A stretch of 64,000 nt of DNA from contig JAFGXO010000059.1 of NCBI GenBank assembly GCA_016936595.1, positions 15,654 to 79,653 of the forward strand. Direction: 5' to 3'. How positions within the stretch are numbered: position 1 is the first letter of the stretch; every line of letters starts with the position of its first letter. A program made the position numbers and the translations under genes. Positions 8,161 through 48,565 of this stretch are shown piece by piece. Source of the DNA: Bacteroidales bacterium. GTDB lineage: Bacteria; Bacteroidota; Bacteroidia; Bacteroidales; JAFGUD01. The notes under the pieces were generated by a model. The model did not search any database. It saw only the letters and a list, made by a program, of their open reading frames with translations, and was not told the origin of the DNA.

Positions 8161-8175
8161 TCAATATTTTTCATT

Positions 8176-8183
8176 TAATTTTG
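8176..8183 (+). promoter_or_regulatory. -7 box TAATTTTG upstream of dxs
   Basis: Matches TAnnTTTG, 18 nt before the ATG at 8201. Confidence 0.4.
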
Positions 8184-8200
8184 TTCAAAAATAATCAATT

Positions 8201-10114: not shown

Positions 10115-10159
10115 TATTCAAAACAAATGTAATTTATTATCTTTTTCAAAAAAAGAAAC

Positions 10160-12022: not shown

Positions 12023-12069
12023 GAAACCATCTATTACACTTAAAATCAGACTTTGAACAAAAAACTCAC

Positions 12070-13254: not shown

Positions 13255-13497
13255 ATTATTTTTGTTTAATAGTTTTAATTAAATTTGCAAAATATTTTAT
13301 CTGATAAAAAAACTTAATTAATTTGCGTAATTTATTAAATTATACAATTTTGCAAAGATTTATTTTATAAAAAGTTTAAAAATTTGTTTTCTTTGTACTA
13401 TACAAACGCCTTTTCATCGCACAAAGTTAAGAGCATAAATTATTTTTAACAAATATTTGAGAGTTAAAATAAAATTTCAACAAAAAATAAAATTAAC

Positions 13498-14202: not shown

Positions 14203-14227
14203 ATCACTTAACATTTAATTTAAAAAT

Positions 14228-14818
14228 ATGTACGAATATATTTCCGGAGAAATTGCTGAAATTTCTCCTTCTTACGTTGTTATTGAGGCTGGTAAAATTG
14301 GATATTTTATCAGCATTTCATTAACAACTTTTGAACAACTTAATGAAAAAAAAGAAGCAAAATTGTATATTCATCAAATTTTAAGAGAAGATACAAATGA
14401 TTTATTCGGATTTGCAGACAAAAGTGAACGTGAAATTTTTCGCCAACTTATTTCTGTGTCGGGAATTGGAGCAAACACTGCTCGTTTAATGCTATCTTCT
14501 TTAAAACCATTACAAATTATCGAAGCAATTGAAACCGGAGATGTAAACACCATAAAAAGCATAAAAGGAATTGGAGCAAAAACAGCTCAACGTGTTATTG
14601 TTGATTTAAAAGATAAAGTTGGAAAAATAACTTCGTCAGACGAATTACCATTTCTATCAGGTTTTAATACAAATGTAGAAGAAGCAATTTCAGCTTTAAC
14701 AATGCTTGGATTTAATAAAAAAACAGTCGAAAAGGTTGTTCAAGGATTAATAAAAGTCAACAAAAATGCAACAGTTGAAGAACTGGTTAAACTTGGCATT
14801 AAAAACATGAGTAATTAA
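14228..14818 (+). CDS. ruvA: Holliday junction branch migration complex subunit RuvA
   Basis: MYEYISGEI...VVIEAGKIGY, plus HhH motifs GIGANTARLM and GIGAKTAQRV. Confidence 0.9.
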   Translation: MYEYISGEIAEISPSYVVIEAGKIGYFISISLTTFEQLNEKKEAKLYIHQILREDTNDLFGFADKSEREIFRQLISVSGIGANTARLMLSSLKPLQIIEAIETGDVNTIKSIKGIGAKTAQRVIVDLKDKVGKITSSDELPFLSGFNTNVEEAISALTMLGFNKKTVEKVVQGLIKVNKNATVEELVKLGIKNMSN

Positions 14819-14848
14819 TCGCTATTTTAAAATTCAAGGATCTTATAT

Positions 14849-14912
14849 ACTTTATAAACTTTAAATACTTTAAGAACTTTAAACTCTTAAAAACTTTTTT
14901 CAACTTTTTAAC
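14849..14912. repeat. Phased ACTTTAA-like motif array upstream of sprA
   Basis: ACTTTATAA, ACTTTAAAT, ACTTTAAGA and ACTTTAA start at 14849, 14858, 14867 and 14876 (exact 9-bp period). Degenerate copies follow at 14883, 14893 and 14903. Confidence 0.6.
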
Positions 14913-15013
14913 TAATTACCATCTTTATTTTAACATTCTTATCACACTATTATTTATATAAAAGTCGTTTGAGAAATGTAAAACAAAAAGAACTAAGAAA
15001 TTTTTGAGCTAAA

Positions 15014-18000: not shown

Positions 18001-21000
18001 CCTAAATCTTGGCGATATTTCAGAAGATATTCTTAAAGATTCACGAAAAAGTAGAGAAAACGGCATACCTTATCCTTCAGACCCAACTCAAATAGACACA
18101 ACACAGTGGGGAATTGTTACACGACAACCTATGACAACCCAAAATTTTGACAACAACGCAAGTGCAAGAGATATTCAAGATGTGGGATTAGACGGTTTAG
18201 GCGGAACAAACGAAGGAATGTTTTTTTATGATTACCTTCAACTAATTGCACAACTATACGGCGTTAATTCAATTGCTTATCAAAAAGCAGCAACCGACCC
18301 CAGTAACGACAATTTTAAATTCTATTTAGATAATTATTACGATAGTCTGCAAGCAGATGTACTAACCCGTTACAAAATGTTTAACGGAATGGAAGGAAAC
18401 TCTGCAATAAGTGGCGGTAACAACTACTCTGCTGTTTCGCAACTCCCGGATATGGAAGATGTAAACAGAGACAACACCTTAGATAATTACGAAGCATATT
18501 ATCAATATCAAATACACCTAAGCCCCGATCAAATGAATGTTGGACAAAATTACATTGTTAACAAAGTTGATGTTACAGCATTAGGCTTACCAAACGAAGA
18601 CACAGACCAAAAAGTAACTTGGTATCAATTTAAAATCCCTGTTCATTCTCCCGACAGAGTAGTTGGACAAGTACAAGGATTCAAATCAATTCGTTTTATG
18701 CGATTGTTTATGAGCGGTTTTGCAAACCCAACAATTTTAAGGTTTGCAAAATTCAATCTTATTCGCGATGAATGGAGAGAATATCAATATAACATCACTC
18801 AAGGAAGCGAAGGAACAATATACCCTCAAACCGGTTCATCAGGAACTCTTGATATTTCTGTTGTAAACATTGAAGAAAGTTCTCAAAAAGATCCCGTTAA
18901 CTACATTATGCCTCCGGGAGTTGTTAGAACTCAGGATTTATTTGACCAACAACCAATTAAAGAAAACGAACAATCAATGAGTTTAAGAGTTTTAAACCTA
19001 CCCGACGGTCAAGCAAAAGCGGTGTATAAAAATGTTGATATGGATTTACGAAAATATAATGCCATTCAAATGTACGTTCATGCCGAAGCACTAATTGGCG
19101 AAGAGGATTTGCTTGACGATTACGACCTATGTTTATTCGTTCGTATAGGTTCAGATTTTACCGATAACTATTACGAATATGAAATTCCATTGAAAAAAAC
19201 ACCCGCAGGAACTTATATTTCAAATGATGATGACATTACAGCCACCGACAGATATATAGTTTGGCCAACCGAAAACGAACTAAACCTTTCATTAGAAGAG
19301 TTGTTAGATGTTAAACAACAACGTAACTTAGCAATGGCTGATCCAAATTCAAACATCTCATTTGCAACTCCTTACGTAGTTTTTGACGGGAAAAACACAA
19401 TACGTGTTTTAGGTAATCCAAATTTATCAAATGTAAAAGTAATGATGATTGGAGTACGAAACCCCAAAAGAGAATACAATTTATACACAAGCGACGACGG
19501 AAGCACTAAATCAGCAGAAATTTGGGTAAATGAACTACGATTAACCGATTTTAACGGTTCCGGCGGATATGCTGCTAATGCAAGATTTAATGCTAATCTT
19601 GCCGACTTTGCAAGTGTTACTCTTTCGGGGTATATGCACACTCCCGGTTTTGGTGGAATTGAAAAACGTGTTAACGAAAGATACACCGATCAAACTATCG
19701 AATACGACTTCACTTCTCAAGTTCAACTTGGAAAATTTTTCCCTCGTGATTATGGCGTTTCTGTTCCATTATACGTAGGTTTTTCTCAAAGTATTTCTAA
19801 TCCTGAATATAATCCGTTTGACCCCGACATTAAATTTCAAGATGCTCTATCATCTTTACCGGACTCTACTAAAACTTCACTTAAAAATGCCGCTCAAACA
19901 TTCACTCAGCGACGCAGTTTTAACATCACAAATTTAAATATTCAAGGAAAAACAAACACAAACAGATCCGGAAACAACAATGCAAGAAGCACAGGCAATT
20001 CGCCTAAACCATGGAAAATTTCTAATTTTTCAACTTCTGTTGCTTTTAATGAAATTTATACAAGAACTCCTTTAATTGAATTTAATTATCAGAAAAATTT
20101 AATGTACAGTGTAAACTACAATTATGCTCCTAATCCTAAAGTAGTTACTCCTTTTAAAAGATCAAAATTATTTAGAGCCAGAATTTTTCAAATCGTAAAA
20201 GATTTTAACTTTTATTATCTACCAACAAGAATTAATTTTTCAACAGAAGTAAACAGACAATACATTTCTTTTAGGAACAGAAACGTGGGAGACGAAGATA
20301 TTAATCTTCCAACATCATATCAAAAAAATTTTTTATGGAATAGAAATTACGATATTTCTTATAAAATTACTAACGGTTTAAAATTAGACTTTACTGCCAA
20401 TAACGGAGCACGTATAGAACCCGACGGTTGGAGAGAACGAGAAACTCTTTTTGAAAAATGGAACATTAAACACCCTTCCGACACGGTTTTCTTAAATCTT
20501 TATGATTTAGGACAAAATACCGACTACCAACAATCAATTAAACTTAACTACAGAGTACCAATTAACAAACTACCATTATTAAGATGGACTTCGTTAACTG
20601 CCAATTATGTAGTTAATTACGATTGGCGTAGAGGTCCCGACGAACTAATTGTTGCCGCAACTGATACTACACCTGAATACAACTTAAATTTTGGAAATAC
20701 AATACAAAATTCATCAACTTTACGACTCGACGGAAGACTAAATTTCACCAACTTATACAGTAGCGTAGGATATTTAAAAAAGGTACAAGGTCGCTTTACT
20801 GCTAACGGAAGAACTCCTGTACAACGTCAAGATAAAGACGTAAGTTATACACGAACAGTAAGATTATTCAATGGAACTCCACAATACATTGTTCACAATC
20901 TAAAAACCGAAAACATAACAAAAGTTGAACTAACCTCTGAAGATGGACAAGTACTTAATAGCTCAAACTACGAAATAATGAGCCCTAACAAAATAAAAAT

Positions 21001-22498
21001 AACCCCCGATTCTACAATAAGAAACGTTACGTTAGTTATTGAAGGGAAAAAACCAATGGCTGAAAATCCATTAATTGTTATTTCAGATTACACATTAAAT
21101 ACTCTAATGATGCTGCAAAGTGTTTCAATAAATTACAAACTCGGTGCTGGCTCATTAATTAACGGATATATGCCCGAAACATTTTTATTTGGAAGTCAAA
21201 AAGTTAACGATGTTATTGCTCCGGGTGTAGGATATCTTATTGGAATACAAGATTATTCTTTAATTGAAAGATTTGCTCAGAATAGATGGCTCACAGACGA
21301 CTCTTTGTTTAATTTGCCAATTAATTACACAAATAGCGAAGAAATTAGAGTTAGATTTAGCCTTGAACCTATAAACAACATAAAAATTGATTTAAACTTC
21401 CAGAGAAACAACACAGTTAATCAAACTAACTACGGAAATATTGTTGACAACAATTTTGATATAAAAACCCAACTCCGAAACGGAAACTTTTTCATATCAT
21501 TTAATACAATTCAATCAGCATTCGAAAACGTAAATGCTAATACGGATTCAATTTATTATTCGCAATATTTTGAAGATTTTTTAGATAACAGACAACAAAT
21601 TGCATCGCGATTAGCACAAGAAAGACACAATATTGACGGAACTTATGACAACACCCAAACATATACCGACAGTTCCGGAACTTATCCAATAGGATACAGT
21701 GGAATTTCGCAAGAAGTTCTTATTGCGTCATTTTTATCTGCATATTCAGGCATTTCGCCCGATGCAATTGAACTTTCGTCATTTCCCCAAATTCCACTAC
21801 CCGACTGGAGAGTTACTTTTGATGGTTTATCTAATTTACCATTTGTAAAAGATTACGTTCAAAAAATATCTCTAACTCACTCTTATGCATCAACTTACAC
21901 GGTTAACGATTTTAATTCTAATCCTAATTTTGACTATGAAACATACGACGCAAGAGGATTTAGCAGGTCAATGTATGAATCAAATGATTTATTTATTCCT
22001 ATTTACGAGATTAATGGTGTACTAATTAGCGAAAAATTTGTTCCTTTTATTGGGATAGATATTACATGGAAAGGAAGTTTAACAACTCGAATTGAATACA
22101 AAAAAGCAAGAGACTTATTTTTAAGTTTTAACAACAATCAAATTCGCGAACGTCATAACAACTCAATTACTATTGGTGCCGGATACACATTAAAAGATTT
22201 AGGCATGAACATAAAAGTAAACGGACAACAGCAAGCAATAAACAGCGATTTAAATTTACGATTAGACCTAACCGCCGGAAACGACATAGAACTTTACCGT
22301 AAAATTGTTGAAGAAATTACTCCAACAATAAATACAAGTCGCAAAAATTTTACTTTAAGCTTTACAGCCGATTATTCTATAAACGACAAATTAAGCTTAC
22401 AATTTTATTTTAACGACGCAATTATGGAAACCAATACAGCACCCAAAACAACAAACGCTCAAGGTGGATTTAAAGTACGTTTTGCACTTACTCCATAA
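15014..22498 (+). CDS. sprA: Type IX secretion system translocon / cell-surface protein SprA
   Basis: 2494-aa single ORF with a signal peptide (LLFIMANISLFSQ). The size and sequence character fit Bacteroidota SprA (Sov). Confidence 0.88.
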   Translation: MIITQYKIKKYIAVLLFIMANISLFSQTDTTNLPFQIKHFDNPLLNQRYNSALYLKLPSDYSQDVQFDPATGNFIITPKVGNFSTGRPYIMTFDEYNLHQTKTAIRNNWKLNNQRQSTDNDFLNDFLNPQINLGIAGIDKIFGSDQITVVPTGNVDISLGLSYYNIDNDALAKRVRRNVNFDFTQNIQLGVNGKVGDKMNVGINYNTQAMFAYENRRKVDYNGEEDEIIQKIEAGDITFPLNNTLIPGSSTLFGIRTDLQFGNLTITNVVSHQNGETKTIEVQGGAVLNDFEISASDYEEDKHFFLSHYFRDNYEAAMQTLPIVTSNVKITRIEVWVTNKTSDFQNARDVVAFMDLGTNTNHIYADGFVVGNPNVNMPDNQTNNLYDLMTSTYSGIRQISAVSNVLSTIPNFTEGVDFAKLESARKLEANEYSVNMDLGYLSLNYRLKPGEVLAVAYEYTVNGETFQVGEFTNDIEAPNTLILKLLRGPASIPNFPTWDLMMKNIYSLNTYSLSRDDFALEIYYNNDRLGTKTNYIPEGDIADERLLRVFNFDNADNQNNPNPDGFFDLIEGITVNSRNGLIIFPELEPFGDYLATQIGNQQIAKKYTFPELYDSTQYIAQQTAVKNKFYLKGQYKSSGGNEIMLNVLNVPQGSVKVTQGGQELTENVDFSVDYNIGKVTILNEALLRSGMPIKISLESNDQFGMTTKSLLGTHWNYQFSDNFNVGATYMHLSELPVDPKTRLGIEPISNTIYGFNTNFTHDAPFLTRAVDFLPFIETKVPSTITLTAEFAQLIPGNPRFIKKRYDADGVSFIDDFEQSQTFIDLKSPQAWMMSSVPQGQNDLFPEAADGTGFTSGFNRAKISWYDINDDFTVKTSNTRPSYITLDDISKHYIRQVYEKEIFPNKQYPNGLPTRMTIFNIAYYPSDRGPYNYDVEPSNISAGIDDQGQLNDPQSRWGGIMRDLYITDFESSNIGFVEFWLLNPFIYDSLSTGGELYLNLGDISEDILKDSRKSRENGIPYPSDPTQIDTTQWGIVTRQPMTTQNFDNNASARDIQDVGLDGLGGTNEGMFFYDYLQLIAQLYGVNSIAYQKAATDPSNDNFKFYLDNYYDSLQADVLTRYKMFNGMEGNSAISGGNNYSAVSQLPDMEDVNRDNTLDNYEAYYQYQIHLSPDQMNVGQNYIVNKVDVTALGLPNEDTDQKVTWYQFKIPVHSPDRVVGQVQGFKSIRFMRLFMSGFANPTILRFAKFNLIRDEWREYQYNITQGSEGTIYPQTGSSGTLDISVVNIEESSQKDPVNYIMPPGVVRTQDLFDQQPIKENEQSMSLRVLNLPDGQAKAVYKNVDMDLRKYNAIQMYVHAEALIGEEDLLDDYDLCLFVRIGSDFTDNYYEYEIPLKKTPAGTYISNDDDITATDRYIVWPTENELNLSLEELLDVKQQRNLAMADPNSNISFATPYVVFDGKNTIRVLGNPNLSNVKVMMIGVRNPKREYNLYTSDDGSTKSAEIWVNELRLTDFNGSGGYAANARFNANLADFASVTLSGYMHTPGFGGIEKRVNERYTDQTIEYDFTSQVQLGKFFPRDYGVSVPLYVGFSQSISNPEYNPFDPDIKFQDALSSLPDSTKTSLKNAAQTFTQRRSFNITNLNIQGKTNTNRSGNNNARSTGNSPKPWKISNFSTSVAFNEIYTRTPLIEFNYQKNLMYSVNYNYAPNPKVVTPFKRSKLFRARIFQIVKDFNFYYLPTRINFSTEVNRQYISFRNRNVGDEDINLPTSYQKNFLWNRNYDISYKITNGLKLDFTANNGARIEPDGWRERETLFEKWNIKHPSDTVFLNLYDLGQNTDYQQSIKLNYRVPINKLPLLRWTSLTANYVVNYDWRRGPDELIVAATDTTPEYNLNFGNTIQNSSTLRLDGRLNFTNLYSSVGYLKKVQGRFTANGRTPVQRQDKDVSYTRTVRLFNGTPQYIVHNLKTENITKVELTSEDGQVLNSSNYEIMSPNKIKITPDSTIRNVTLVIEGKKPMAENPLIVISDYTLNTLMMLQSVSINYKLGAGSLINGYMPETFLFGSQKVNDVIAPGVGYLIGIQDYSLIERFAQNRWLTDDSLFNLPINYTNSEEIRVRFSLEPINNIKIDLNFQRNNTVNQTNYGNIVDNNFDIKTQLRNGNFFISFNTIQSAFENVNANTDSIYYSQYFEDFLDNRQQIASRLAQERHNIDGTYDNTQTYTDSSGTYPIGYSGISQEVLIASFLSAYSGISPDAIELSSFPQIPLPDWRVTFDGLSNLPFVKDYVQKISLTHSYASTYTVNDFNSNPNFDYETYDARGFSRSMYESNDLFIPIYEINGVLISEKFVPFIGIDITWKGSLTTRIEYKKARDLFLSFNNNQIRERHNNSITIGAGYTLKDLGMNIKVNGQQQAINSDLNLRLDLTAGNDIELYRKIVEEITPTINTSRKNFTLSFTADYSINDKLSLQFYFNDAIMETNTAPKTTNAQGGFKVRFALTP

Positions 22499-30742: not shown

Positions 30743-31840
30743 ATGAGCTTAAAAAAACTTTACAAAAAAATATTTGACGGATTAAATTTGAATGCAGAAG
30801 AAGCATTAATTCTGTATCAAAAAGCACCTACAAGCGAACTAATGTTTATTGCAAACGAAATCCGAAAATCCAAAAAAAACGACGATAAAAAAGTAGGCTG
30901 GATAATTGACAGAAACGTTAATATTACAAACGTATGCACAGCACAATGTAAATTTTGCAATTTTTGCACAACCATTCAATCACCAAACGCCTACATAACA
31001 ACAATAGCAGAATACAAACAAAAAATTGACGAATTATTTACCAAAGGAGGCAATCAACTTTTGTTACAAGGAGGAATGCACCCAAAATTAGGGCTAAATT
31101 TTTACACAAATCTATTTTCAGAACTAAAATCTTTATACCCAAACTTAAAATTACATGCACTTAGCCCAACCGAAATTGTTCATATTTCAAAAATGGCAAA
31201 ATTATCATATTCCGAAACATTACAAAAACTAATTGCATCAGGATTAGACAGTTTACCCGGAGCAGGAGCCGAAATATTATCCAACAGAGTACGCAACATT
31301 GTTTCGCCTGCAAAATGTACAACTCAACAGTGGTTAGATGTTATGGAAGAAGCCCACAAATTAAACATTCCAACATCAGCAACAATGATGTTTGGTTTTA
31401 TTGAAACTTTAGAAGAAAGAATTGAACATTTGATAAAAATTAGAGATTTACAAGCGAAAAAACCCAAAGATTCCTACGGATTTATAACTTTTGTTCCATG
31501 GCCATATCAACCCGAACACACACGTTTACAAAAAAAATATCCTGATTTAAAAGAAGCAACATCGGTGGAATATTTACGACTTATTGCTCTAAGTAGAATT
31601 ATTTTAACTAATATTGAAAATATTCAGGCATCGTGGTTAACAGTTGGCAAAGAAGTTGCACAGTTAGCCCTTTCGGCAGGAGCAAATGATTTAGGCTCAA
31701 TCATGATTGAAGAAAATGTTGTGTCGGCTGCCGGAGCTGACCACAAAATGAATGCACTACAACTCCAAAACACGATAAAAGAAGCAAGGTTTATTCCTTT
31801 ATTAAGAAATCAAAAATACGAATTTGTAGAAAATTTTTAA
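30743..31840 (+). CDS. Radical SAM enzyme of the CofH/MqnC/MqnE family (futalosine menaquinone pathway)
   Basis: NITNVCTAQCKFCNF is the CX3CX2C motif. Length (365 aa) and the N-terminal EEALILYQKAP...ANEIRK fit MqnC/MqnE. I cannot separate MqnC from MqnE by eye. Confidence 0.7.
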   Translation: MSLKKLYKKIFDGLNLNAEEALILYQKAPTSELMFIANEIRKSKKNDDKKVGWIIDRNVNITNVCTAQCKFCNFCTTIQSPNAYITTIAEYKQKIDELFTKGGNQLLLQGGMHPKLGLNFYTNLFSELKSLYPNLKLHALSPTEIVHISKMAKLSYSETLQKLIASGLDSLPGAGAEILSNRVRNIVSPAKCTTQQWLDVMEEAHKLNIPTSATMMFGFIETLEERIEHLIKIRDLQAKKPKDSYGFITFVPWPYQPEHTRLQKKYPDLKEATSVEYLRLIALSRIILTNIENIQASWLTVGKEVAQLALSAGANDLGSIMIEENVVSAAGADHKMNALQLQNTIKEARFIPLLRNQKYEFVENF

Positions 31841-36193: not shown

Positions 36194-36222
36194 GCCGTCT
36201 AACTATCATTAGACGGCTTTTG
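36194..36222. terminator. Intrinsic terminator shared by rpsT (+) and the radical SAM cluster (-)
   Basis: GCCGTCTA-actatcat-TAGACGGC is a perfect 8-bp stem followed by TTTTG. It lies between the stops at 36166 and 36234. Confidence 0.65.
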
Positions 36223-36233
36223 TTGTTATACAA

Positions 36234-37556
36234 TTAAAAAATATTTGGGGTAATTCTTCTTTTGATATAATATCTATAGTGCATATTTATACCAATTGAA
36301 AAAAGCAACATTTTAGGATTCCGCCAAAGATACTTATTAAACAAAGTTCTGTTTATTATACTTTTTAACGAAAAAGTTTTGCGATTAAGCCACCAATACA
36401 TTTCAGTTAATTTTTCGGGCGTAATTTTTTTAGGAATATGCACACATTGAGAGCCATCAAAATCTTTCCAATTTTCGGTTAATAATCTACCTTCGTCTTG
36501 ATATTGTCTATACAAATTGGTGCCGGGAATAGGCGTTAAAATATAAAATCGCGGAATAGGAACTTTATTTTTATTTATAAAATCAAATGTTTTTCTTATG
36601 CTATCCTCAGTATCCTCATCAGTACCAACAATCATCTCTGTGCTTACGGTTATACCGGCTTCACTTAAAATTCTAAAATTTTCGGCATGTTCACTTGCTT
36701 TAAGCCAAGGTTTTTGAATACTATTTAAAGCCTCCTGACTAATGCTTTCAACACCAAAGCTCATTAAATCGCAACCGGATTTTACAACAACATCAAGCAA
36801 ATCAGGTTTTTTAGCCAAATGCAAAGCACACTGGCTAGCCCAATTCATTTTTAAAGGAGTTATTTTTTCACATAATTCACGCAGATATTTTGGGTTAGAA
36901 ACAATGTTATCATCTATTAAATAAAACCGTTTAAATCCCAATCTTTTAACTTCTTTTATATCCCTAATAACCTCATCTACAGGCCTAAATATATATTTTC
37001 CTTCGTACAAACAAGCAATAGAACAAAAAGAACATTGAAAAGAACACCCCCTACCCGCCTGAACAGGCAACATATTGCCAATTGATTTTTGAGTTAACAA
37101 ATCATAACGAGGCAAGGGTAAATTTTTAAGTTCAGTAATTGGGTGATTATAAATAGGTTTTAATATACCGGTTTGCTCAAAATCTTTAAGCATTAAATTA
37201 AACGATATTTCGGCATCACCAACAACAACGCTGTCAACATGCTTTAAAGTTTCTTCGTAGGCAATAGAAGCCATGTATCCACCCATAACAACCGTTTTAC
37301 CGCGTTTTTTAAACTCGTGTGCAATTTCGGCTCCTCTAAAAATTGCATGCCCCATTGTGCCTATTGCAATCAAATCAGCATCGCTGTCAAAGTTTATTTT
37401 ATCAACTACTTCAATTGCAACTTCAATATCCCAATGTTTTGGAGTATATGCAGCTAAAAGAGGGAACGCTAATCCCGGCAGATTAATTTTTCTCTGAGTA
37501 CAAAGTTTTCCGTTTTCGGCGTATTGAGTTGGTTGTATGAATAATATTTTTGGCAT
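36234..37556 (-). CDS. B12-binding domain-containing radical SAM protein
   Basis: N-terminal Rossmann-like B12-binding region (ILFIQP...DLIAIGTM...VVMGG). Radical SAM motif AGRGCSFQCSFC. 440 aa. Confidence 0.8.
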   Translation of the reverse strand: MPKILFIQPTQYAENGKLCTQRKINLPGLAFPLLAAYTPKHWDIEVAIEVVDKINFDSDADLIAIGTMGHAIFRGAEIAHEFKKRGKTVVMGGYMASIAYEETLKHVDSVVVGDAEISFNLMLKDFEQTGILKPIYNHPITELKNLPLPRYDLLTQKSIGNMLPVQAGRGCSFQCSFCSIACLYEGKYIFRPVDEVIRDIKEVKRLGFKRFYLIDDNIVSNPKYLRELCEKITPLKMNWASQCALHLAKKPDLLDVVVKSGCDLMSFGVESISQEALNSIQKPWLKASEHAENFRILSEAGITVSTEMIVGTDEDTEDSIRKTFDFINKNKVPIPRFYILTPIPGTNLYRQYQDEGRLLTENWKDFDGSQCVHIPKKITPEKLTEMYWWLNRKTFSLKSIINRTLFNKYLWRNPKMLLFSIGINMHYRYYIKRRITPNIF

Positions 37557-37630
37557 AATTTATTTTTATAATAATTCACAAACAGATACAGCAGTAATCT
37601 TTTTTAGAGCATTCAAATAGAACAAAGCAT

Positions 37631-39004
37631 TTATTTAATCCTTTTGCTGTTTTTTATTTTTTGTTGATATTGTTTTCTAACCCTTGAGCTTCCGGCAATC
37701 ATTTTCCCGAGCATATCTGATCTATATAGTTTTAGATATTTTAAAAGCACTTTAGGTTGAAATAAAATTTTATTATATGCTTTTAAAATTTGTTTGTAAT
37801 AATTGGCAACACTCATTTTACTTGGTTTAATAGAAACATGAGCTAAATCCCATTTTTCAAACTCTTCTTTTTTGATTAAAAGTTTATCTTGAGGATAAGT
37901 AAAACCTGTTTTTGGTAAAGGTGTAAGAGGCTGTAAATTAACATAATGTATTCCAATAGATTTAACAGACTTTATCATTTTTTTAAAATCATTTTTATCC
38001 CAATCCGGCGAAACAATCATTGTTGCATAACAATCAATTTTATTTTCGTTTAGCACTTGCATTGTTTTTTTATACAAATCGGCATTTGTTTTTTTATTAT
38101 ATTTTTTTAAATCCTCTTCAAAAAAACTCTCAAAACCTACAATTACAGTACGAAGTCCAATTTTTGCTAATTTTTTAATTAAATCAGGATTATTTGCAAC
38201 AAAATCCGCCCTCCCATAAACCAAATATTTTTTGTCAATTTTTTGTTCAATAGATTTTTCAATAAATAATTCAAGACGCTTTTTATCAGTCAAAAAATCA
38301 TCATCAACAATATAAATTTCTTTTTCAGGAATAGTTTTAAGCTCCTCAAAAACATCATCAAGCGACCTTTGATTATACTTTCCGGCTGTTATAACCGAAC
38401 AAAAACAAAACGAACAATTAAAAGGGCAGCCATAAGAAGTTTTAATAAGAGCAACTTTATCATGAAAAATGTAAAAATATTTGTCTCGATATTTTTCAAC
38501 CGATTTTCTTACTGCCCAAGGAACATAGAAATTAAAATCCGGCAACTTTAATAAATCTAATTTTTCATTTTTCGCTAATATTCCGGCAGGTAAATCATTT
38601 TTTTGATCAATGTGATTTAATAAATCGGTAAAAACAATTGCAGCATTACGAACAACTCTAAAATCAACAGCCTCATTTTCAAAATCTTCCGGCACAATTT
38701 CGCAATGAACACCGCCAACAATTGTTATTGTTTCAGGATTATCAGCTTTTGCAATTTTACAATAGTCGATTATTATTGAAACATTAGTAATATATCCCGT
38801 AAGGCAAACAATATCAGGTTTATGCAAATGAATAAAATATTCAAACGAACGTTCTTCAACCAACATGTCGATAATTTCTGCTTCGTCGGTTTCCCGAACA
38901 AGCCCGAACAATATTTCTAATTCCAATGGTTCAACAATCATTAAATGCTGCAAACCAATTGTTTCAGGCGATGCATGAGGGCGAATAAATAATATTTTTG
39001 ACAA
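37631..39004 (-). CDS. B12-binding domain-containing radical SAM protein (second, divergent copy)
   Basis: N-terminal ILFIRP...DIVCLTGY...TIVGGVH, then SYGCPFNCSFC. 457 aa. Confidence 0.8.
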   Translation of the reverse strand: MSKILFIRPHASPETIGLQHLMIVEPLELEILFGLVRETDEAEIIDMLVEERSFEYFIHLHKPDIVCLTGYITNVSIIIDYCKIAKADNPETITIVGGVHCEIVPEDFENEAVDFRVVRNAAIVFTDLLNHIDQKNDLPAGILAKNEKLDLLKLPDFNFYVPWAVRKSVEKYRDKYFYIFHDKVALIKTSYGCPFNCSFCFCSVITAGKYNQRSLDDVFEELKTIPEKEIYIVDDDFLTDKKRLELFIEKSIEQKIDKKYLVYGRADFVANNPDLIKKLAKIGLRTVIVGFESFFEEDLKKYNKKTNADLYKKTMQVLNENKIDCYATMIVSPDWDKNDFKKMIKSVKSIGIHYVNLQPLTPLPKTGFTYPQDKLLIKKEEFEKWDLAHVSIKPSKMSVANYYKQILKAYNKILFQPKVLLKYLKLYRSDMLGKMIAGSSRVRKQYQQKIKNSKRIK

Positions 39005-39097
39005 TTTTTTTTAATTAAAAGTTTAAAAAATTCAAAAAGTATAAAAAACAAAAAATCCTTTCTCATAAATTTATAGGATTAAAAAAAATTTAATCGT

Positions 39098-40102
39098 TTA
39101 AAATGTATTTTTCGAAAAAACATTAAAACTTTGAATTTGCCGATTATATCCCAAAGATTTTTCAGCCATTTTTATAAATTTGTTAAAAAATTTATTACTA
39201 TGTTTAGCTTGAATATATCTTTTTTCAATATGCCCACCCATTCGTAATTTGGGGATTTCAGCTGTTTGTCCAAAATCAATATATTCAACTTTTTGTTCAA
39301 TTCCTTGTTTAACAATATTGACCAAGAGCCTTAGATAAGTGCTATTTTCAGAATTAAATTTGTAATCAATTCCACCGAGAAAAAAATAGAAATAATTTTT
39401 ATATTTAGCCGTAATATTCCAACCAATTACGTTATTTTGTTTTTTACAAACAGTTAAATTAAAATTAGTTGGCAAATTTTTAAAAAACTCAAAGTTAAGT
39501 TTTTCTAATTTATCTTTACTTTTATAAAAAACTTGCAAATATTGTTCATACATTTGTTCAGTAAAATGATGACAACTGTATTCTAAAAGCTCAATATTGC
39601 TTGTATATTGGATCAAATTTAATCTTCGGCGATAATTAGCCCTAAGTTTAGCAAAATAATCGTCCCACGAGCAAAAAGTATTTTTAAGTACAATTGTAGG
39701 AAGAGTATTTCCGGTTGCCAAAAATTTTTTTTCGGGTTTATTATACAGATTTAAAAAAACAACCAAACCTTTTTCGGCATCAAAAATATAATCAGTTAGC
39801 TTTTCAACAATATTTATTTCACCAAAAATACCCTGAGCCGAAACCGACGCAGGTATTCCCACAATATTCATTTTTAATGGGCTTTTTATTCTCAGAAACG
39901 TTAAAAAATCTAACCTAATAGAGTACATAACTGCCCCACCAACAAATTCACGGTTATTAAAACACTGATAGTAACGTTGTTCGCAAGGATTGTATTTTTG
40001 AGCATGAACTAAAAATTCTTTTGTTTGGAAATAATTAGAGGTAAAGTTATCCCAATCATTATGCAAATCAAGAGCAGTATTTATTTTTTTTATTTTAAAC
40101 AT
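39098..40102 (-). CDS. FemAB-like / GNAT-superfamily acyltransferase-like protein
   Basis: 334 aa. The C-terminal YFYFFLGGIDYKF...YIDFGQTAEIPKLRMGG resembles the FemAB-like acetyltransferase family pattern. Recognised by eye only. Confidence 0.45.
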   Translation of the reverse strand: MFKIKKINTALDLHNDWDNFTSNYFQTKEFLVHAQKYNPCEQRYYQCFNNREFVGGAVMYSIRLDFLTFLRIKSPLKMNIVGIPASVSAQGIFGEINIVEKLTDYIFDAEKGLVVFLNLYNKPEKKFLATGNTLPTIVLKNTFCSWDDYFAKLRANYRRRLNLIQYTSNIELLEYSCHHFTEQMYEQYLQVFYKSKDKLEKLNFEFFKNLPTNFNLTVCKKQNNVIGWNITAKYKNYFYFFLGGIDYKFNSENSTYLRLLVNIVKQGIEQKVEYIDFGQTAEIPKLRMGGHIEKRYIQAKHSNKFFNKFIKMAEKSLGYNRQIQSFNVFSKNTF

Positions 40103-40177
40103 TGCTGAATTTTTCGAGTTTTTCGAGTAACAAGTTACTCTAAAAATTCGATAACTTACAACTCGACAACTTATTAA

Positions 40178-41263
40178 CTACAAATCATCTTCAAAAACGG
40201 CAAATTGCCTGTATGGTTGTGGTTTTTTACCATAAACCCGTTGTAAAATTCGAGAAACAAAAGCGATAGAAGCTCTGTTTTCTTCAAAAATAAAACCACC
40301 TTCGCAAAACTGATATTTTTTTTGAATTAATTTTGATAATGATTTGCTTATTAGAGCTAATGCAACCGGACTACGCTGAAATTGGGGAATTACACCAATT
40401 TGAGTAAACCTAAAAGTATTAATTTTATTGGTTAAGCGATATTTTAAAACATCAAAAACATTTAATTCTCTATGATTATCAACAATTTGATTAAAATCAG
40501 GATACCATAGATAAAAACCAACAGGAGTACCATTAATTTCGGCTATAATAAGATGCTCATTATCAAGCAAAAATCTAAACGGATAAAATAATTCCTGATC
40601 CTCTTCAATATCTCTGTCAGCCCAATAAACGTGTTTTACAAAAGACAAATTATTAAGCTTAGTATATATTGCACTTTCTTTATTAATATCTCCTTTATTC
40701 ATAAACCGAACATGTAAACTATCTAACTTACGATCAGGATTATACATCTTAGCCCATTCGTGGTAAGCATCCATCGAAAATTTAAAAGTGTACATTTTTC
40801 TTTGTAGCAAATTTTTAAAATAATTCGAATAATAAGGCGGATTATACGACAAGCCAAATAATGGAACTTCATCAAACTTATTTTGCAAAATCCCTGCTCC
40901 GTAATTTATATGTCCGTTTAGCCCAACAACAATCTTAGAACATTCGGGGATATAATTTTTTGCCGTTTTTTTTATCAACGGATAAATATCGCCTAAACCT
41001 TCGTGTGCTTCAAAAAAAGAAACCTGTATATAATCTAACAAACGATAATCATTTATTAAAGCAAATTTTCCTACAATATCATTTCCATCTCTCATTAGGT
41101 ACATTCTTGAAGTAGAATGATTCTTAAAAGAAGATTTATCTAGCAGGAGCATTTTTTCTATACCTGCCTCGGTTCCTCTATAAAATTTATTGTTTTTATA
41201 AACTGAATTATTAACACTTATAAAAGTATTAAATGCCGATTTATCAATTCTTTCAATTTTCAA
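40178..41263 (-). CDS. Uncharacterised protein with a C-terminal GNAT-like fold
   Basis: 361 aa. ...IAEINGTPVGFYLWYP...FTQIGVIPQFQRSPVALALI resembles GNAT beta4-alpha3 (motif A region). Confidence 0.35.
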   Translation of the reverse strand: MKIERIDKSAFNTFISVNNSVYKNNKFYRGTEAGIEKMLLLDKSSFKNHSTSRMYLMRDGNDIVGKFALINDYRLLDYIQVSFFEAHEGLGDIYPLIKKTAKNYIPECSKIVVGLNGHINYGAGILQNKFDEVPLFGLSYNPPYYSNYFKNLLQRKMYTFKFSMDAYHEWAKMYNPDRKLDSLHVRFMNKGDINKESAIYTKLNNLSFVKHVYWADRDIEEDQELFYPFRFLLDNEHLIIAEINGTPVGFYLWYPDFNQIVDNHRELNVFDVLKYRLTNKINTFRFTQIGVIPQFQRSPVALALISKSLSKLIQKKYQFCEGGFIFEENRASIAFVSRILQRVYGKKPQPYRQFAVFEDDL

Positions 41264-41328
41264 TTTAGCAATATGAATTAATGTTTTTAAAAAATATTGA
41301 GTTGATATTTTCAGGTTACAGAAAAAAT

Positions 41329-41997
41329 CTATTTATAAATATTCTTTTTGAGAACTAAGCCATGTTTTTTAACATCGCCAATAATTTCCTCATCAGGAGG
41401 CCAATAAACTACACCATTAGGTTCATTATAAGAATAATAAATTGCATTATGATGTCCATTATTTTCAAAAACTGTATTTTTAATTTTCAAATTAGGACCT
41501 TGATAAATAATTGAATACTGACTATTTTTATGAATATAACAATTTTTGACTTGCATTTTATTACAATTATAAGAGGCTATCCCAACAATTCCACAACCAT
41601 TTAAATCACAATTATCAAAAACAGCAGAAGAACAATTTTGAATATAAACAACATTACCGGTGCAGCCTATAGGCCCCTGAGGCTCAACATGAGTTGCTTT
41701 TATATTTTTAACAGTAACACCATCGCAATCAAGTATATTAAAGACGTTTTCGGAAGTAGAACTTAAAACAAATGTAGCACCTTGACCATCAATGGTTATA
41801 TTATTTAAACCTGATATAACAATTGGTTCAGAAGTGGTATAAATTTTATTTTCAAGAGTGATAACACAATCAGAACCTGCATTTAAAAGAGCATCTTGCA
41901 ATTGTTCAATACTTGCAACATTTTGTGCATCAGAATAAAATGGATATACTATAAAATTTAGAACAAAAAAAGTCCAAAACAGCAAAGTATGTTTCAT
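41329..41997 (-). CDS. Secreted right-handed parallel beta-helix repeat protein
   Basis: Signal peptide ending SDAQN. Repeated coils: ITIDGQGATFVL, VTVKNIKATH, VYIQNCSSAVFDNCDLNGCGIVGI, MQVKNCYIHKNSQYSI. Confidence 0.6.
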   Translation of the reverse strand: MKHTLLFWTFFVLNFIVYPFYSDAQNVASIEQLQDALLNAGSDCVITLENKIYTTSEPIVISGLNNITIDGQGATFVLSSTSENVFNILDCDGVTVKNIKATHVEPQGPIGCTGNVVYIQNCSSAVFDNCDLNGCGIVGIASYNCNKMQVKNCYIHKNSQYSIIYQGPNLKIKNTVFENNGHHNAIYYSYNEPNGVVYWPPDEEIIGDVKKHGLVLKKNIYK

Positions 41998-42015
41998 AAT
42001 TGTAGAATTTTAAAA

Positions 42016-43161
42016 TTAAAAAAAAATTTCCTGAGGTTTCATAAACCCTAAAAACTCAGTATAAGAAGAAGCAGAATATGAGCCACCATTACCAAAAACA
42101 ACTACATCACCAATTTTAAGTTCAGGCAAATTCCTATTAGCACAAAATATATCACGAGAATAAGTTGAAGAACCAAAAATTGTTGTTAAATATTTTTTAT
42201 CAGAGTTAAGAATTTCCTCATTTCTGATTATTAAAGCAGGATGGTTTGCAGTATCGGGATAAAGTAATGGTCTGGAAAATTGAGTTGTTGAAGCATTTAA
42301 GCCTGCTAAAATTTGATTGTCGCGTTTTTTAATATCTGTAATGTAAGCAACAAAATGACCGGCAATTCCGCCAATAATTCTACCGGGTTCCAATATCAAT
42401 TTAAGGTTTTTTTTGTGCATTTCAGACGCTTTTTGCATAAGTTCTGAAACTTTTAAGCCATAAGTATATACATCAAAGTTTGTTTCACCATCTTCCGAAA
42501 CACCAAAGCCTCCACCAAAATTTAAGTATTCGATGTTTGGAAACAAAAATGAAAGTTCAATAAGCTCATTATAGCAAGCCAAAAAATATTCAAGATCAAA
42601 AATATCGGTACCGGCATACAAATGTAAACCTTTGATAATATGCTTATTATCCATATTCTTAAGTTCATCAACTGTAAAACCCAGCCGACTTTGTTTACCA
42701 ATAAAAAAACCTGCACGAGTAGAATAAGGCTCAACTTTATCACCGATATTACACCTAATACCAACCTTTTGGTCGGAGTAAAGTTTTTGCCATATATCAA
42801 ATTGACGAGGTGAATCGAGATTTAATTGAGCACCGGCAGAATGAATTTTCCGCATAGTTTTTTCAGATAAAGCCGATGAAGTAAAAATAATTTGTTCATC
42901 TGTAAAACCAGCTTTCTGAACAGCCTCCATGTGTATCAATGAATTAACAAAAACATTTATTTTTTCTTCGTTCACTATTTTCAAAAATTCATTATTAATG
43001 TTTGCCATAGTAGCAAAATGTATTGCTTTATTTTTATACGGAATATCGTGAAACACCCGACAATTTTGTCTAATTTTTTGAGATTCGTATATATAAAACG
43101 GATCAAATTCGCCCTTAGCAAGCAAATTTATTTTGGAAAGCAAATTAGGATTAATCTTCAT
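42016..43161 (-). CDS. Orn/DAP/Arg decarboxylase (fold-type III PLP) homolog with substituted catalytic residues
   Basis: Retains FGGGFG, LEPGR and the GSYSASSY (GAY-like) motifs. It has FATMAN where the family has YAxKAN (Met52 codon at 43006-43008). It also has LHLYAGT in place of HxGS, and GSSTYSRD in place of CESGD. Confidence 0.7.
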   Translation of the reverse strand: MKINPNLLSKINLLAKGEFDPFYIYESQKIRQNCRVFHDIPYKNKAIHFATMANINNEFLKIVNEEKINVFVNSLIHMEAVQKAGFTDEQIIFTSSALSEKTMRKIHSAGAQLNLDSPRQFDIWQKLYSDQKVGIRCNIGDKVEPYSTRAGFFIGKQSRLGFTVDELKNMDNKHIIKGLHLYAGTDIFDLEYFLACYNELIELSFLFPNIEYLNFGGGFGVSEDGETNFDVYTYGLKVSELMQKASEMHKKNLKLILEPGRIIGGIAGHFVAYITDIKKRDNQILAGLNASTTQFSRPLLYPDTANHPALIIRNEEILNSDKKYLTTIFGSSTYSRDIFCANRNLPELKIGDVVVFGNGGSYSASSYTEFLGFMKPQEIFF

Positions 43162-43184
43162 TCTTAATTTTTAATGATAAAGAA

Positions 43185-43192
43185 CAAAGTTA
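43185..43192 (-). promoter_or_regulatory. -7 box TAACTTTG (minus strand) for the 43161 cluster
   Basis: The reverse complement of CAAAGTTA matches TAnnTTTG, 24 nt upstream of the ATG at 43161. Confidence 0.4.
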
Positions 43193-46424: not shown

Positions 46425-46712
46425 TTATTCTCCTGTAACAATAGTTTCGTAAGTCCAAATAATACCTAAAATATTATCTTGTTTCATGTCAACAGTAGAA
46501 ATTTTAGTAATTCCACCATTTCTAGCTGCAGTTTGGATACTTGCATCTTGATCAAGAGCTAAAAAGCCAAGATAAACAGTAGCAGTAGCAGTACCAACTT
46601 TAGTTCCAACAGGGTTACTTGTAGCAGTAACAGGCATTACGATTGAACAAGAAGATAATAAAAGTGCACCAGCGGCAACAAAACCTAAAATTGAATTTCT
46701 TAATTTTTTCAT
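46425..46712 (-). CDS. TRL-like small lipoprotein
   Basis: 95 aa with lipobox LLSSCS. The sequence TSNPVGTKVGTATATVYLGFLALDQDASIQTAARNGGITKISTVD fits the TRL-like family pattern. Confidence 0.6.
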   Translation of the reverse strand: MKKLRNSILGFVAAGALLLSSCSIVMPVTATSNPVGTKVGTATATVYLGFLALDQDASIQTAARNGGITKISTVDMKQDNILGIIWTYETIVTGE

Positions 46713-46745: not shown

Positions 46746-47033
46746 TTATTCTCCGGTAACAATAGTTTCATAAGTCCAAATAAGACCTAAAACATTACCT
46801 TGTTTCATATCAACTGTAGATATTTTTTTAATTCCGCCATTTTTTGCAGCAGTTTGAATACTAGCATCTTGATCAAGAGCTAAAAAGCCAAGATAAACAG
46901 TTGCTTTAGAAGTACCAACTTTAGTTCCAACAGGATTACTTGTAGCTGCAACAGGCACGACTATTGAACATGAAGTCAATAACATTGCACCAACGGCAAC
47001 TAAACCTAAAATAGAATTTCTTAATTTTTTCAT
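46746..47033 (-). CDS. TRL-like small lipoprotein (tandem paralog)
   Basis: ATG at 47033 (MKKLRNSILG...); the track start at 47063 is TTG. It differs from the 46425..46712 product at 13 of 95 residues by eye. Confidence 0.6.
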   Translation of the reverse strand: MKKLRNSILGLVAVGAMLLTSCSIVVPVAATSNPVGTKVGTSKATVYLGFLALDQDASIQTAAKNGGIKKISTVDMKQGNVLGLIWTYETIVTGE

Positions 47034-47170
47034 ATTAAATATTGATTTAAAAATTTCGCCCAAATATAAAATAAAATATACATTCTAAAAAATTATTCGT
47101 CAAAAAGTGTATAAAAAAGGAGTTTTTAGAAAACTACACTTTAAAAACCCTTACATTTTCAAAAAAAAGG

Positions 47171-48565
47171 CTAATATCTATAATGTTCGGGTTTATAAGG
47201 CCCGTCAACTTTTACGCCTATGTAATCGGCTTGTTCTTTAGATAAAGTAGTTAAATTTACTCCTACATGTTTCAAATGCAATCGGGCAACCTCTTCATCT
47301 AAATATTTAGGCAATCTATACACATCTATTTTATAATCTTTTTTCCACAAATCAATTTGGGCTAGGGTTTGATTAGTAAACGAATTACTCATCACAAAAG
47401 AAGGATGACCTGTAGCTGTTCCTAAATTAACTAAACGACCGTCGGCTAAAAGAATAATAGAATGTCCATCAGGAAAAACATATTGATCAACTTGAGGTTT
47501 AATATTTATATGTTTTATTCCGGGATAGGTTTTTAATTTTTCAACCTGAATTTCATTATCAAAATGACCTATATTGCAAACAATAGCTTTATCTTTCATT
47601 TTAGCCATGTGTTCAACAGTGATAATATCTTTATTTCCGGTAGCAGTAACAAATATATCAGTTTTTTGTACAACTTCTTCAGTTAATTTCACTTCAAAAC
47701 CTTCCATTGCAGCTTGTAAGGCACAAATAGGGTCAATTTCAGTAACAGTAACTTTTGCACCAAATCCTTTAAGCGATTGAGCAGAACCTTTTCCTACATC
47801 GCCGTATCCGCATACTAAAACAGATTTTCCGGCAACCATAATATCGGTAGCTCTTTTAATACCATCAGCAAGAGACTCACGGCAACCGTAAAGATTATCA
47901 AATTTTGATTTAGTTACAGAATCGTTAACATTTATTGCAGGGAATAAAAGTTTTCCTTGTTCCATCATTTGATACAACCGATGAACACCAGTAGTTGTTT
48001 CTTCGGAAACTCCTTTAATATTTTTGGCTATACGTTGCCATTTAGTTTTATCCTGTGCATATATTGCATTAAACCGTTTAAAAAGCTCAATTTCGTCTTC
48101 GGTAGTTTTAGTTTCATTTAAAAGTGCAGGATTTTTTTCTACATCAACGCCTAAATGCACCATTAAAGTGGCATCTCCTCCATCATCAACAATTAAATCG
48201 GGTCCCGAACCATCAGGGAAAGTAAGAGCTTGTTCTGTAGCCCACCAATATTCTTCAAGAGTTTCACCTTTCCAAGCAAAAACAGGAATACCGGTTTTAG
48301 CAATTGCAGCGGCAGCGTGATCTTGAGTTGAATAAATATTGCAACTTGCCCAACGCACGTCGGCACCAAGTTCTACAAGAGTTTCAATTAAAACGGCTGT
48401 TTGTATTGTCATGTGTAAAGAGCCGGATATTTTAGCCCCTTTTAAAGGTTTTTCTTCAGAAAATCTTCGTCTTAAAGACATTAATCCTGGCATTTCAATT
48501 TCGGCTAAACCAATTTCTTTTCTCCCCCAATCGGCAAGACTAAGATCTTTTATTTTGTAATTCAT
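47171..48565 (-). CDS. ahcY: Adenosylhomocysteinase
   Basis: [18 protein letters not shown]..., the NAD site [14 protein letters not shown], and the C-terminal YRY. Confidence 0.95.

Follow-up and report, generated by a model that had tools for sequence, protein, structure and literature searches.

Organization of the locus

We analyzed a 64,000-nucleotide stretch of DNA from a Bacteroidales metagenome-assembled genome (MAG; GenBank assembly GCA_016936595.1, contig JAFGXO010000059.1, positions 15,654 to 79,653), referred to below as the window, and in particular a cluster of six genes on its minus strand that we call, in order of transcription, A, X, B, C, D and E (Table 1). We found that five of these genes, A-B-C-D-E, make up a conserved, colinear and co-diverging operon. 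An initial annotation, made from the letters of the window, had described six co-directional open reading frames (ORFs) separated by gaps of 18, 65, 75, 93 and 74 nt and located between tRNA genes and rpsT. All of these coordinates were exact, and both flanks were as described, with genes for tRNA-Arg(CCT) and tRNA-Asn(GTT) upstream of the operon and rpsT downstream in the convergent orientation. NCBI has entries that match the A and C proteins with 100% identity, and the GC content of the operon genes is native to the genome. Recent horizontal acquisition, or carriage on a mobile element, was rejected on the basis of this native GC content, the lack of phage matches, and plasmid matches that were only remote.

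The signals bounding the cluster were partly as first described. The promoter-like box upstream of A is present, and there is no minus-strand copy of its motif (TAnnTTTG) in the four internal intergenic gaps. The motif is frequent in the AT-rich window, with 168 matches observed compared to 127 ± 13 expected, and the single box is therefore only suggestive of a promoter. The perfect 8-bp-stem terminator reported at 36194-36222 is a real hairpin, and a terminator scan detected it on both strands, where it spans 36194-36217, has 9-10 pairs and is shared with rpsT. Rfam identified just the two tRNAs in the window, and no riboswitch or other RNA leader.

Table 1. Genes and other features described in the text. 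Positions refer to the window, except where an accession number is given.
Feature	Position	Strand	Basis
A: fold-type III Orn/DAP/Arg decarboxylase-like protein, 381 aa	42016..43161	-	Pfam, NCBIfam, 2yxx alignment
X: right-handed beta-helix protein, signal-like N-terminus, 222 aa	41329..41997	-	Pfam Beta_helix
B: tandem-GNAT N-acyltransferase (predicted), 361 aa	40178..41263	-	AlphaFold model, Foldseek, HHalign
C: Fem-type (double GNAT) putative aminoacyl-tRNA-dependent aminoacyltransferase, 334 aa	39098..40102	-	Model, Foldseek
D: cobalamin-domain radical SAM enzyme, 457 aa; CX3CX2C at Cys193/197/200	37631..39004	-	Pfam, ortholog profile
E: radical SAM enzyme, flavodoxin-like N-domain, 440 aa; CX3CX2C at Cys171/175/178	36234..37556	-	Pfam
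TAACTTTG: Bacteroidota -7-type promoter-like box, 24 nt 5' of the A start codon	43185..43192	-	Read from sequence
GC-rich hairpin GCCGTCTAA...TTAGACGGC between convergent E and rpsT; bidirectional terminator-like	36194..36217	.	Terminator scan, both strands
Diverged cluster of Acetoanaerobium noterae DSL2 (locus L085)	NZ_CP154629.1 786060-804908, ORFs 7874-16969		

Five of the six genes form a conserved operon

We scanned one genome per species (185,579 species genomes) and obtained 70 loci, a count that is limited by the gene pattern. Comparisons were made over the 54 informative loci, which are those with room for the whole core. Orthologs of all five genes, in the same order, were present at 47 of these 54 loci, from about nine phyla. 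The loci lacking the full core mainly had fragmented MAG genes or replaced radical S-adenosylmethionine (SAM) enzymes. By the submitters' labels, the carriers are mainly Bacteroidota MAGs, and there are further carriers in Ignavibacteriota, Calditrichota, Krumholzibacteriia, Chitinispirillaceae/Chitinivibrionales, Myxococcales, Nitrospirae, Spirochaetia and Pseudomonadota. The operon is found in uncultured anaerobes from sediments, groundwater and digesters, and among the loci found a single cultured organism, Saccharicrinis sp. FJH62, carries it in full.

Across the loci, the core proteins have lengths of 381 (A), 362 (B), 335 (C), 456 (D) and 440 (E) aa. The stop and start codons of adjacent core genes overlap in most other genomes, including the stop codon of A with the start codon of B. 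Pairwise divergence of the five proteins was correlated (Spearman rho 0.68-0.90), with the tightest co-divergence between A and B (rho 0.89) and among C, D and E (0.84-0.90). E is the most conserved protein of the operon, with 57-79% identity across phyla. The genes flanking the operon are unrelated between loci. These comparative data exclude coincidental adjacency. A-B-C-D-E are probably transcribed as one unit. The earlier proposal that the genes co-occur was thus borne out, across phyla, for all of them but X.

X encodes a beta-helix protein (Pfam Beta_helix, 37 bits) with a hydrophobic, signal-like N-terminus. We detected it at only two loci, one from the same organism (L001) and one from the closest relative (L007, with a B protein that is 77% identical), which keeps A, the beta-helix gene, B, C and D. 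This amounts to 1 of the 54 informative loci, a rarity that places X outside the conserved unit. X is a lineage-specific insertion, either a passenger or an add-on, between the normally translationally coupled A and B. The initial annotation had included the beta-helix protein in the system, acting outside the cytoplasm, and for this we found no comparative backing.

Protein A is a decarboxylase homolog with a conserved, altered pocket

A scored above the cutoffs for both Pfam domains of the ornithine/diaminopimelate (DAP)/arginine decarboxylases, PF02784 (Orn_Arg_deC_N; 67.3 bits, cutoff 23.4) and PF00278 (Orn_DAP_Arg_deC; 41.5 bits, cutoff 23), and below that of the NCBIfam model for lysA (TIGR01048; 151.6 bits, cutoff 297.9). 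It had been called a catalytically altered decarboxylase homolog, and alignment to the DAP decarboxylase of T. maritima (2yxx) bore this out. FAVKAN is replaced by FATMAN, HVHIGSQ by HLYAGTD, and GPLCESGD by GSSTYSRD, such that the lysine that binds pyridoxal 5'-phosphate (PLP) is Met52, the histidine of the HxHxGS motif is Tyr182, and the Cys-Glu of the CES motif is Thr333-Tyr334. The Schiff-base lysine, the catalytic cysteine and the ring-stacking histidine that mark members of the Orn/DAP/Arg decarboxylases are therefore all missing from A, and the substitutions make canonical internal-aldimine catalysis impossible.

These changes are not decay, since the altered residues are at least 98% conserved. 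Among the 54 operon orthologs across phyla, this level of conservation was found for Met52, Tyr182, Thr185, S-T-Y-S, D337, EPGR, GGGF and Tyr362. The altered motifs, conserved as G[CS]STYSRD and HLY[AV]GTD, were also present in about 117 of 120 database homologs (Met in 117 of 120), GGGFG and EPGR were present in all 120, and the RPxxY segment is retained. The residues kept in A are those that hold the phosphate and the pyridine nitrogen of PLP in structures of ornithine decarboxylase and DAP decarboxylase, which makes non-covalent binding of PLP by A plausible. A shares its two-domain fold, its contacts to the phosphate and ring of PLP and its RPxxY segment with the fold-type III PLP decarboxylases (LysA, carboxynorspermidine decarboxylase, BtrK, MccE-N and Mur23). 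It differs from them in the invariant Met for Lys, the Tyr for His and the Thr-Tyr for Cys-Glu, which covary across a large clade.

The extent of this clade was estimated from an exhaustive search of 1.84 billion representative sequences, from which the top 150 (P0361-P0510) were aligned. About 100 of the 150 belong to a Lys-less clade that includes A and reaches down to ~27% identity. The substitutions covary cleanly within it, with Met (in rare cases Phe or Val) accompanied by Tyr, Thr and T[YF]S, whereas the canonical sequences have Lys, His, Ser and CE. Fusion proteins also occur among the Lys-less members, joined to a spermidine-synthase domain in P0374 and to a CMAS-type methyltransferase in P0375. 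Gene contexts were sampled at loci L077-L084, and those of the more distant members are varied. Two of the sampled contexts have a CMAS-type methyltransferase and an aminopropyltransferase homolog, and two (L078 and L081) have a radical SAM-SPASM gene followed by a ~690-aa B12-radical SAM gene whose frame overlaps the A-like gene. The closer Lys-less subfamilies share one trait, a partner that uses SAM. No description of the Lys-less fold-type III clade was found in the literature searched, and its partnership with B12-radical SAM enzymes was not found in the reviews consulted on B12-radical SAM enzymes and on decarboxylases.

There is a YggS/PLPBP-like gene (Ala_racemase_N, ~231 aa) near Lys-less A-like genes in two unrelated contexts (L077, 5489-6187; L082, 9715-10410). 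This may be a coincidence or a hint of PLP delivery.

Protein B resembles probable ceramide-synthase-type N-acyltransferases

B had no match in NCBIfam, and its score with Pfam Acetyltransf_1 (20.4 bits) was just under the cutoff (20.7). The AlphaFold model of B (pLDDT 80.8) has a tandem GNAT fold. In the PDB, its best Foldseek matches were to N-acyltransferases that are tandem GNATs and act on small amines; N-myristoyl and Fem-type enzymes ranked lower.

We found remote homologs of B by tblastn against annotated plasmids. Plasmid 1 of Rubrobacter radiotolerans (L086, 6572-12164) has, in order, an Spt-like gene, a B-like gene, a short-chain dehydrogenase/reductase (SDR) gene and an LTA-synthase-family gene. 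On its upstream side the B-like gene overlaps the gene for the Spt-type alpha-oxoamine synthase (444 bits to NF047600), and the SDR reductase gene comes after it. A plasmid of Sphingomonas parapaucimobilis (L088, 3255-8122) has lptF, lptG, a desaturase gene and an 'N-acetyltransferase' gene that is the B homolog. The two homologs are annotated merely as hypothetical protein or N-acetyltransferase. By HHalign, B aligned to the Rubrobacter protein over 311 columns (99.0%, E 7e-18) and to the Sphingomonas protein with 95.9% (E 7e-9).

The layout of these homologs matches the arrangement of CC_1156, CC_1155 and CC_1154 (cerS) in the sphingolipid region of Caulobacter (PMC11324152). The bacterial ceramide synthase bCerS, which is soluble or peripheral, N-acylates a long-chain amine in the cytoplasm (PMC11087976). 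B and the bCerS-like proteins share the motifs PDxN and E..[WF][IV].[ED][ED]N. These profile alignments and motifs suggest, as a lead and not a proof, that B is homologous, remotely and over its full length, to probable bacterial N-acyltransferases of the ceramide-synthase type.

Comparison to the bacterial ceramide module (Spt, bCerS/CerS CC_1154 and CerR) showed both likenesses and differences. In both, a PLP-fold gene lies directly before, and is translationally coupled to, the gene for a soluble tandem-GNAT N-acyltransferase. B appears to be related over its full length to the acyltransferases of the Spt- or LptFG-linked loci and, in keeping with the soluble or peripheral nature of bCerS, is without a transmembrane segment. 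In contrast to the module, the PLP-fold partner in the operon is a Lys-less fold-type III protein rather than a fold-type I alpha-oxoamine synthase, and the core has no CerR-type reductase and adds a Fem-type transferase and at least two radical SAM enzymes. No alpha-oxoamine synthase or CerR-type gene was recurrent beside the operon in the 54 flanking regions.

Protein C has the fold of aminoacyl-tRNA-dependent transferases

C scored just under the cutoff of Pfam Acetyltransf_6 (21.8 bits, cutoff 22) and matched no NCBIfam model, including the PEP-CTERM FemAB family. Many of its homologs carry precomputed PF13480 or PF04339. The model of C (pLDDT 89.9) has the double-GNAT Fem fold, and its best Foldseek matches in the PDB (E 8e-10 to 1e-8; TM 0.54-0.65, up to 0.65/0.74) are all aminoacyl-tRNA-dependent: FemA, Sbb17/Sba18, FemX, L-PGS, A-PGS and MprF. 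There is a basic, Arg-rich helix (LRxxYRRRL) in which R154 and Y157-R160 are invariant in the alignment of C proteins. C therefore has the double-GNAT fold and a conserved basic patch in common with the Fem-type transferases (FemX/FemA, the aminoacyl-phosphatidylglycerol synthase domain of MprF, and Sbb17/Sba18). It differs from them in having no sequence-level family membership and, unlike MprF, it has no flippase or membrane domain. Based on the modeled fold, C is a putative aminoacyl-tRNA-dependent transferase. The initial calls of GNAT-like for B and FemAB-like for C hold at the level of fold.

A cobalamin domain is supported for D and not for E

The motifs GCPFNCSFC and GCSFQCSFC are present in the translations of the two radical SAM genes, as had been reported, and the CX3CX2C cysteines of D and E are 100% conserved in the orthologs. 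Both proteins match Radical_SAM (PF04055), D with 70.5 bits and E with 63.4 bits. The best family-level match of D was to HpnR, the hopanoid C-3 methylase (TIGR04367), with 160.2 bits, below the cutoff of 650.

D and E had both been called B12-radical SAM enzymes, which stands for D and falls short for E. Against the B12-binding domain PF02310 (cutoff 32.1), D scored 48 bits and E scored 27.5 bits. In addition, N-terminal positions 36-130 of the D ortholog profile align to the cobalamin domains of TokK and CysS. The E ortholog profile matched AprD4 and 9ccb, which is MgmA (PMC11796369), via the radical SAM core only, plus a MiaB-type N-domain; its similarity to MgmA (~46-49 bits) is that of a generic radical SAM core. 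These comparisons point to D as a cobalamin-dependent enzyme and to E as a radical SAM enzyme, with a cobalamin domain supported for D alone. D resembles the class B radical SAM methylases (HpnR, TokK, CysS and MgmA) in having a cobalamin-type N-domain and a CX3CX2C core, and is unlike them in scoring far below the equivalog cutoffs, as with HpnR. E is unlike them in that cobalamin binding cannot be demonstrated for its N-domain and in that AprD4, the solved protein nearest to it, is a dehydratase that works independently of B12.

Accessory genes and variant loci

Recurrent accessories of the operon are one to three extra radical SAM paralogs, a ~206-aa class-I SAM methyltransferase, and a pair of genes for an ABC ATPase and an ABC-2 permease. 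Several radical SAM paralogs per cluster are also found in the ThnK/L/P, Bza and BchQ/R systems. None of the accessory proteins reached an equivalog cutoff in a Pfam/NCBIfam scan. ABC-2 or EamA transporter genes adjoin the operon in some lineages, at a minority of loci, and an NAD-binding/DUF2867 gene lies 3' of E at just four loci.

Several loci have a variant architecture (L053-L055, L057, L059-L061, L070 and L071). In a Treponematales MAG (L070, 4499-6657), B is tandemly duplicated. In a subclade of Bacteroidales, the order is rSAM(DUF4070)-A-B-rSAM-C-D-E, where rSAM indicates a radical SAM gene. In one Bacteroidales lineage only (L046/L006, 7030-8394), there is an adenylate-forming enzyme related to F390 synthetase (TIGR02304, 315 bits, above cutoff) upstream of A, with genes for a PlsC-type acyltransferase and a major facilitator superfamily protein further upstream on the opposite strand.

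Acetoanaerobium noterae DSL2, a cultured Firmicute, carries a diverged version of the operon that is without A. The gene order is EamA-type transporter, B-like, C-like, radical SAM, small methyltransferase, D, E and radical SAM. Identities are 47% and 49% for the orthologs of D and E, and 30% and 29% for the B-like and C-like proteins. That such a cluster lacks A indicates that B-C-D-E is the deeper core and that A is an addition in the FCB-type operon. A 381-aa ORF upstream of the DSL2 cluster was rejected as a homolog of A, as it has no similarity to A and looks by sequence like a CorA-type channel. The EamA-type transporter has a His-rich tail. The DSL2 sequence, NZ_CP154629.1, is labelled 'plasmid' and yet is 2.63 Mb, with only four annotated features in PLSDB.

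Three other settings for the operon were considered and rejected. A biosynthetic cluster for a peptide made on the ribosome and modified after translation (RiPP) would require a precursor gene; no small ORF of 25-89 aa was common to more than two loci, and the gaps in the window are 18-93 nt. A link to the adjacent tRNA genes was rejected because tRNA genes flank only 4 of 56 other loci, and with different anticodons. Anti-phage defense was rejected because PADLOC gave generic radical SAM matches to the candidate PDC-M51A (26-48 bits) and none for A, X, B or C.

The operon may assemble a modified amine or aminolipid

The analysis shows the gene content, order, coupling and co-divergence of the operon, the conserved altered pocket in A, the folds adopted by B and by C, and the cobalamin domain of D. 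Which substrates are used, in what order the steps follow one another and that the product is a lipid are inferred. We propose, tentatively and with a probability of about 40%, that the operon builds an N-acylated amine and modifies it further, the most plausible product being a lipid of the aminolipid type that is exported or resides in the envelope. The pocket of A, derived from DAP decarboxylases, would supply or present an amino-acid-derived amine; decarboxylation on freely bound PLP would be possible and is not required by the proposal. B would N-acylate the amine from acyl-CoA or from acyl-acyl carrier protein (ACP), and C would add an aminoacyl group from an aminoacyl-tRNA. D and E, joined in many genomes by the radical SAM paralogs and the small SAM methyltransferase, would methylate unactivated carbons or change them by other radical chemistry, and the ABC-2 or EamA transporters, where encoded, would export or flip the product.

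We favor an aminolipid because B is akin to the bCerS-like enzymes, because C resembles the lipid-aminoacylating domains of MprF, because the best partial match of D is a lipid methylase (HpnR), and because CMAS-type methyltransferases accompany A-like proteins elsewhere. The initial annotation had described the cluster more generally, as making or decorating a small molecule or a component of the envelope that is amino-acid-derived. This remains the best general reading, and the profile searches placed none of the genes in a characterized pathway.

Several findings weigh against this proposal. All of the functional assignments rest on superfamily-level similarity, and in NCBIfam searches with all six proteins every score was far below the curated cutoff. 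The identity of B to the bCerS-like proteins is only 19-25%, and the comparison was made with proteins from sphingolipid-type gene contexts. The nearest solved relatives of E have substrates other than lipids, an aminoglycoside for AprD4 and a protein for MgmA. There was no Spt, ACP or fatty-acid gene conserved beside the operon in the 54 flanking regions, and there was no TM-like stretch in any of the five core proteins. Without the catalytic Lys and Cys, A may not be an enzyme at all, and the absence of an A homolog from the DSL2 cluster implies that A is not essential to the chemistry of B-C-D-E. Finally, the closest relative (L007, 12137-15326) has no E at the locus, where an unrelated 193-aa ORF and a gene of the beta-lactamase fold come after D; the 193-aa ORF has no similarity to E and was rejected as a remnant of it.

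The main competing explanation, which we consider unlikely and still the most serious of the alternatives, is that the product of the operon is a secondary metabolite or signal that is soluble. Such a product would be small, water-soluble and derived from an amino acid, for example a tRNA-dependent pseudo-dipeptide or an acylated diamine, radically C-methylated at several positions and exported as an antibiotic, signal or metallophore-like compound. The closest small-molecule analogs of C, Sbb17/Sba18, are aminoacyl-tRNA-dependent amide synthases of streptothricin-type antibiotics, and the top PDB matches of B acetylate small amines (glucosamine, the clavulanate pathway and mycothiol). The variable radical SAM paralogs, the methyltransferase and the ABC/EamA exporters resemble a tailoring-rich cluster, the distribution over phyla is patchy with unrelated flanks, and other Lys-less A-like genes are found in natural-product-like clusters (BtrH_N, transketolase, PmbA/TldD). 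However, conservation of the operon is very high for a cluster of this kind, as the identity of E across phyla indicates, and its GC content is native. The core has no nonribosomal peptide synthetase, polyketide synthase, ATP-grasp or other scaffold-forming enzyme, the exporters are present at a minority of loci only, and B is akin to lipid N-acyltransferases.

It is highly improbable that B, C and D/E modify a protein, perhaps A itself, to yield an active enzyme with modified residues. MgmA, the relative of E, C-methylates a glutamine of methyl-coenzyme M reductase, and A, with its invariant Met in place of the catalytic Lys and its remodelled, strictly conserved pocket, is the sole core protein that is neither a transferase nor a radical enzyme. 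However, Acetoanaerobium keeps B-C-D-E with no A homolog that could be the target, and the similarity to MgmA is confined to the generic core. Lys-less A-like proteins elsewhere pair with aminopropyltransferase-like proteins and with small-molecule or lipid methyltransferases, not with protein modifiers, and no conserved precursor peptide was found nearby.

Less credible still is the modification of peptidoglycan precursors, in which C would act like FemX on the diamino acid of the stem peptide, at its free amino group, A would be a non-catalytic subunit that recognizes meso-DAP, and the stem peptide would be acylated by B and modified by the radical SAM enzymes. This would fit with the derivation of A from DAP decarboxylases (lysA is its best NCBIfam match, and the RPxxY region is kept) and with the matches of C to FemA and FemX. 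The Glu of the CES motif, which binds the distal ammonium of DAP, is replaced by Tyr in A, and we saw no linkage of the operon to mur, mra or pbp genes. The rarity and patchiness of the operon (about 70 of 185,579 species genomes, by the same pattern-limited count) fit an accessory role, and nothing is specific to murein.

An analogy to the accessory genes of exosortase/PEP-CTERM exopolysaccharide loci, drawn in the initial annotation, has a partial match of A to TIGR03099 and the broad FemAB-like superfamily of C in its favor and is effectively refuted, as TIGR03099 scored 97.2 bits against a cutoff of 478.45, below the 152 bits of A with lysA, C matched no NCBIfam model (the PEP-CTERM FemAB family included), and no exosortase, exopolysaccharide, or acyl-CoA-ligase/ACP genes recur in the 54 flanking regions.

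Our proposal of an N-acylated amine can be extended to the clade of A as a whole, in a form that we regard as improbable. The Lys-less fold-type III proteins could be a hitherto unrecognized kind of subunit that partners SAM and radical SAM enzymes, acting here to make a new family of branched, aminoacylated aminolipids in uncultured anaerobes from many phyla. A would then hold the amino substrate as an aldimine on non-covalent PLP, or without PLP, and the cobalamin-radical SAM partner would alkylate or rearrange it. If this extension is correct, branched aminoacylated aminolipids would be candidate sources of orphan sedimentary lipid biomarkers.

Because every component belongs to a known superfamily, the operon is not categorically new. 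We found no curated family and no publication for the combination of genes in the operon, nor for its conserved Lys-less fold-type III partner. It is a strongly conserved five-gene module of uncultured anaerobes whose members lie outside all curated protein families. It also poses a question in PLP enzymology, which is the role of a fold-type III pocket, maintained in a large Lys-less clade under purifying selection, beside radical SAM enzymes. If the product is a lipid, a single pathway would join ceramide-synthase-like N-acylation, tRNA-dependent aminoacylation and radical methylation, and could explain unassigned branched aminolipids in anoxic environments. With two carriers in culture, Saccharicrinis sp. 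FJH62 and Acetoanaerobium noterae DSL2, the operon is open to experiment.

Other genes in the window

Two genes in the vicinity of the operon encode proteins related to SAM or radical SAM chemistry, and both look like housekeeping genes. An S-adenosylhomocysteine (SAH) hydrolase gene lies 4 kb upstream (47171-48565, minus strand), and there is a radical SAM gene of the MqnC/CofH type 4.4 kb downstream (30743-31840, plus strand). Neither is conserved beside the operon in other genomes. There are also two tandem, paralogous genes for small lipoprotein-like proteins of 95 and 105 aa (46425-46712 and 46746-47063, minus strand). The scan covered the 95-aa copy, which matches the TRL-like family PF13146. 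A very long ORF of 2494 aa is present at 15014-22498 on the plus strand.

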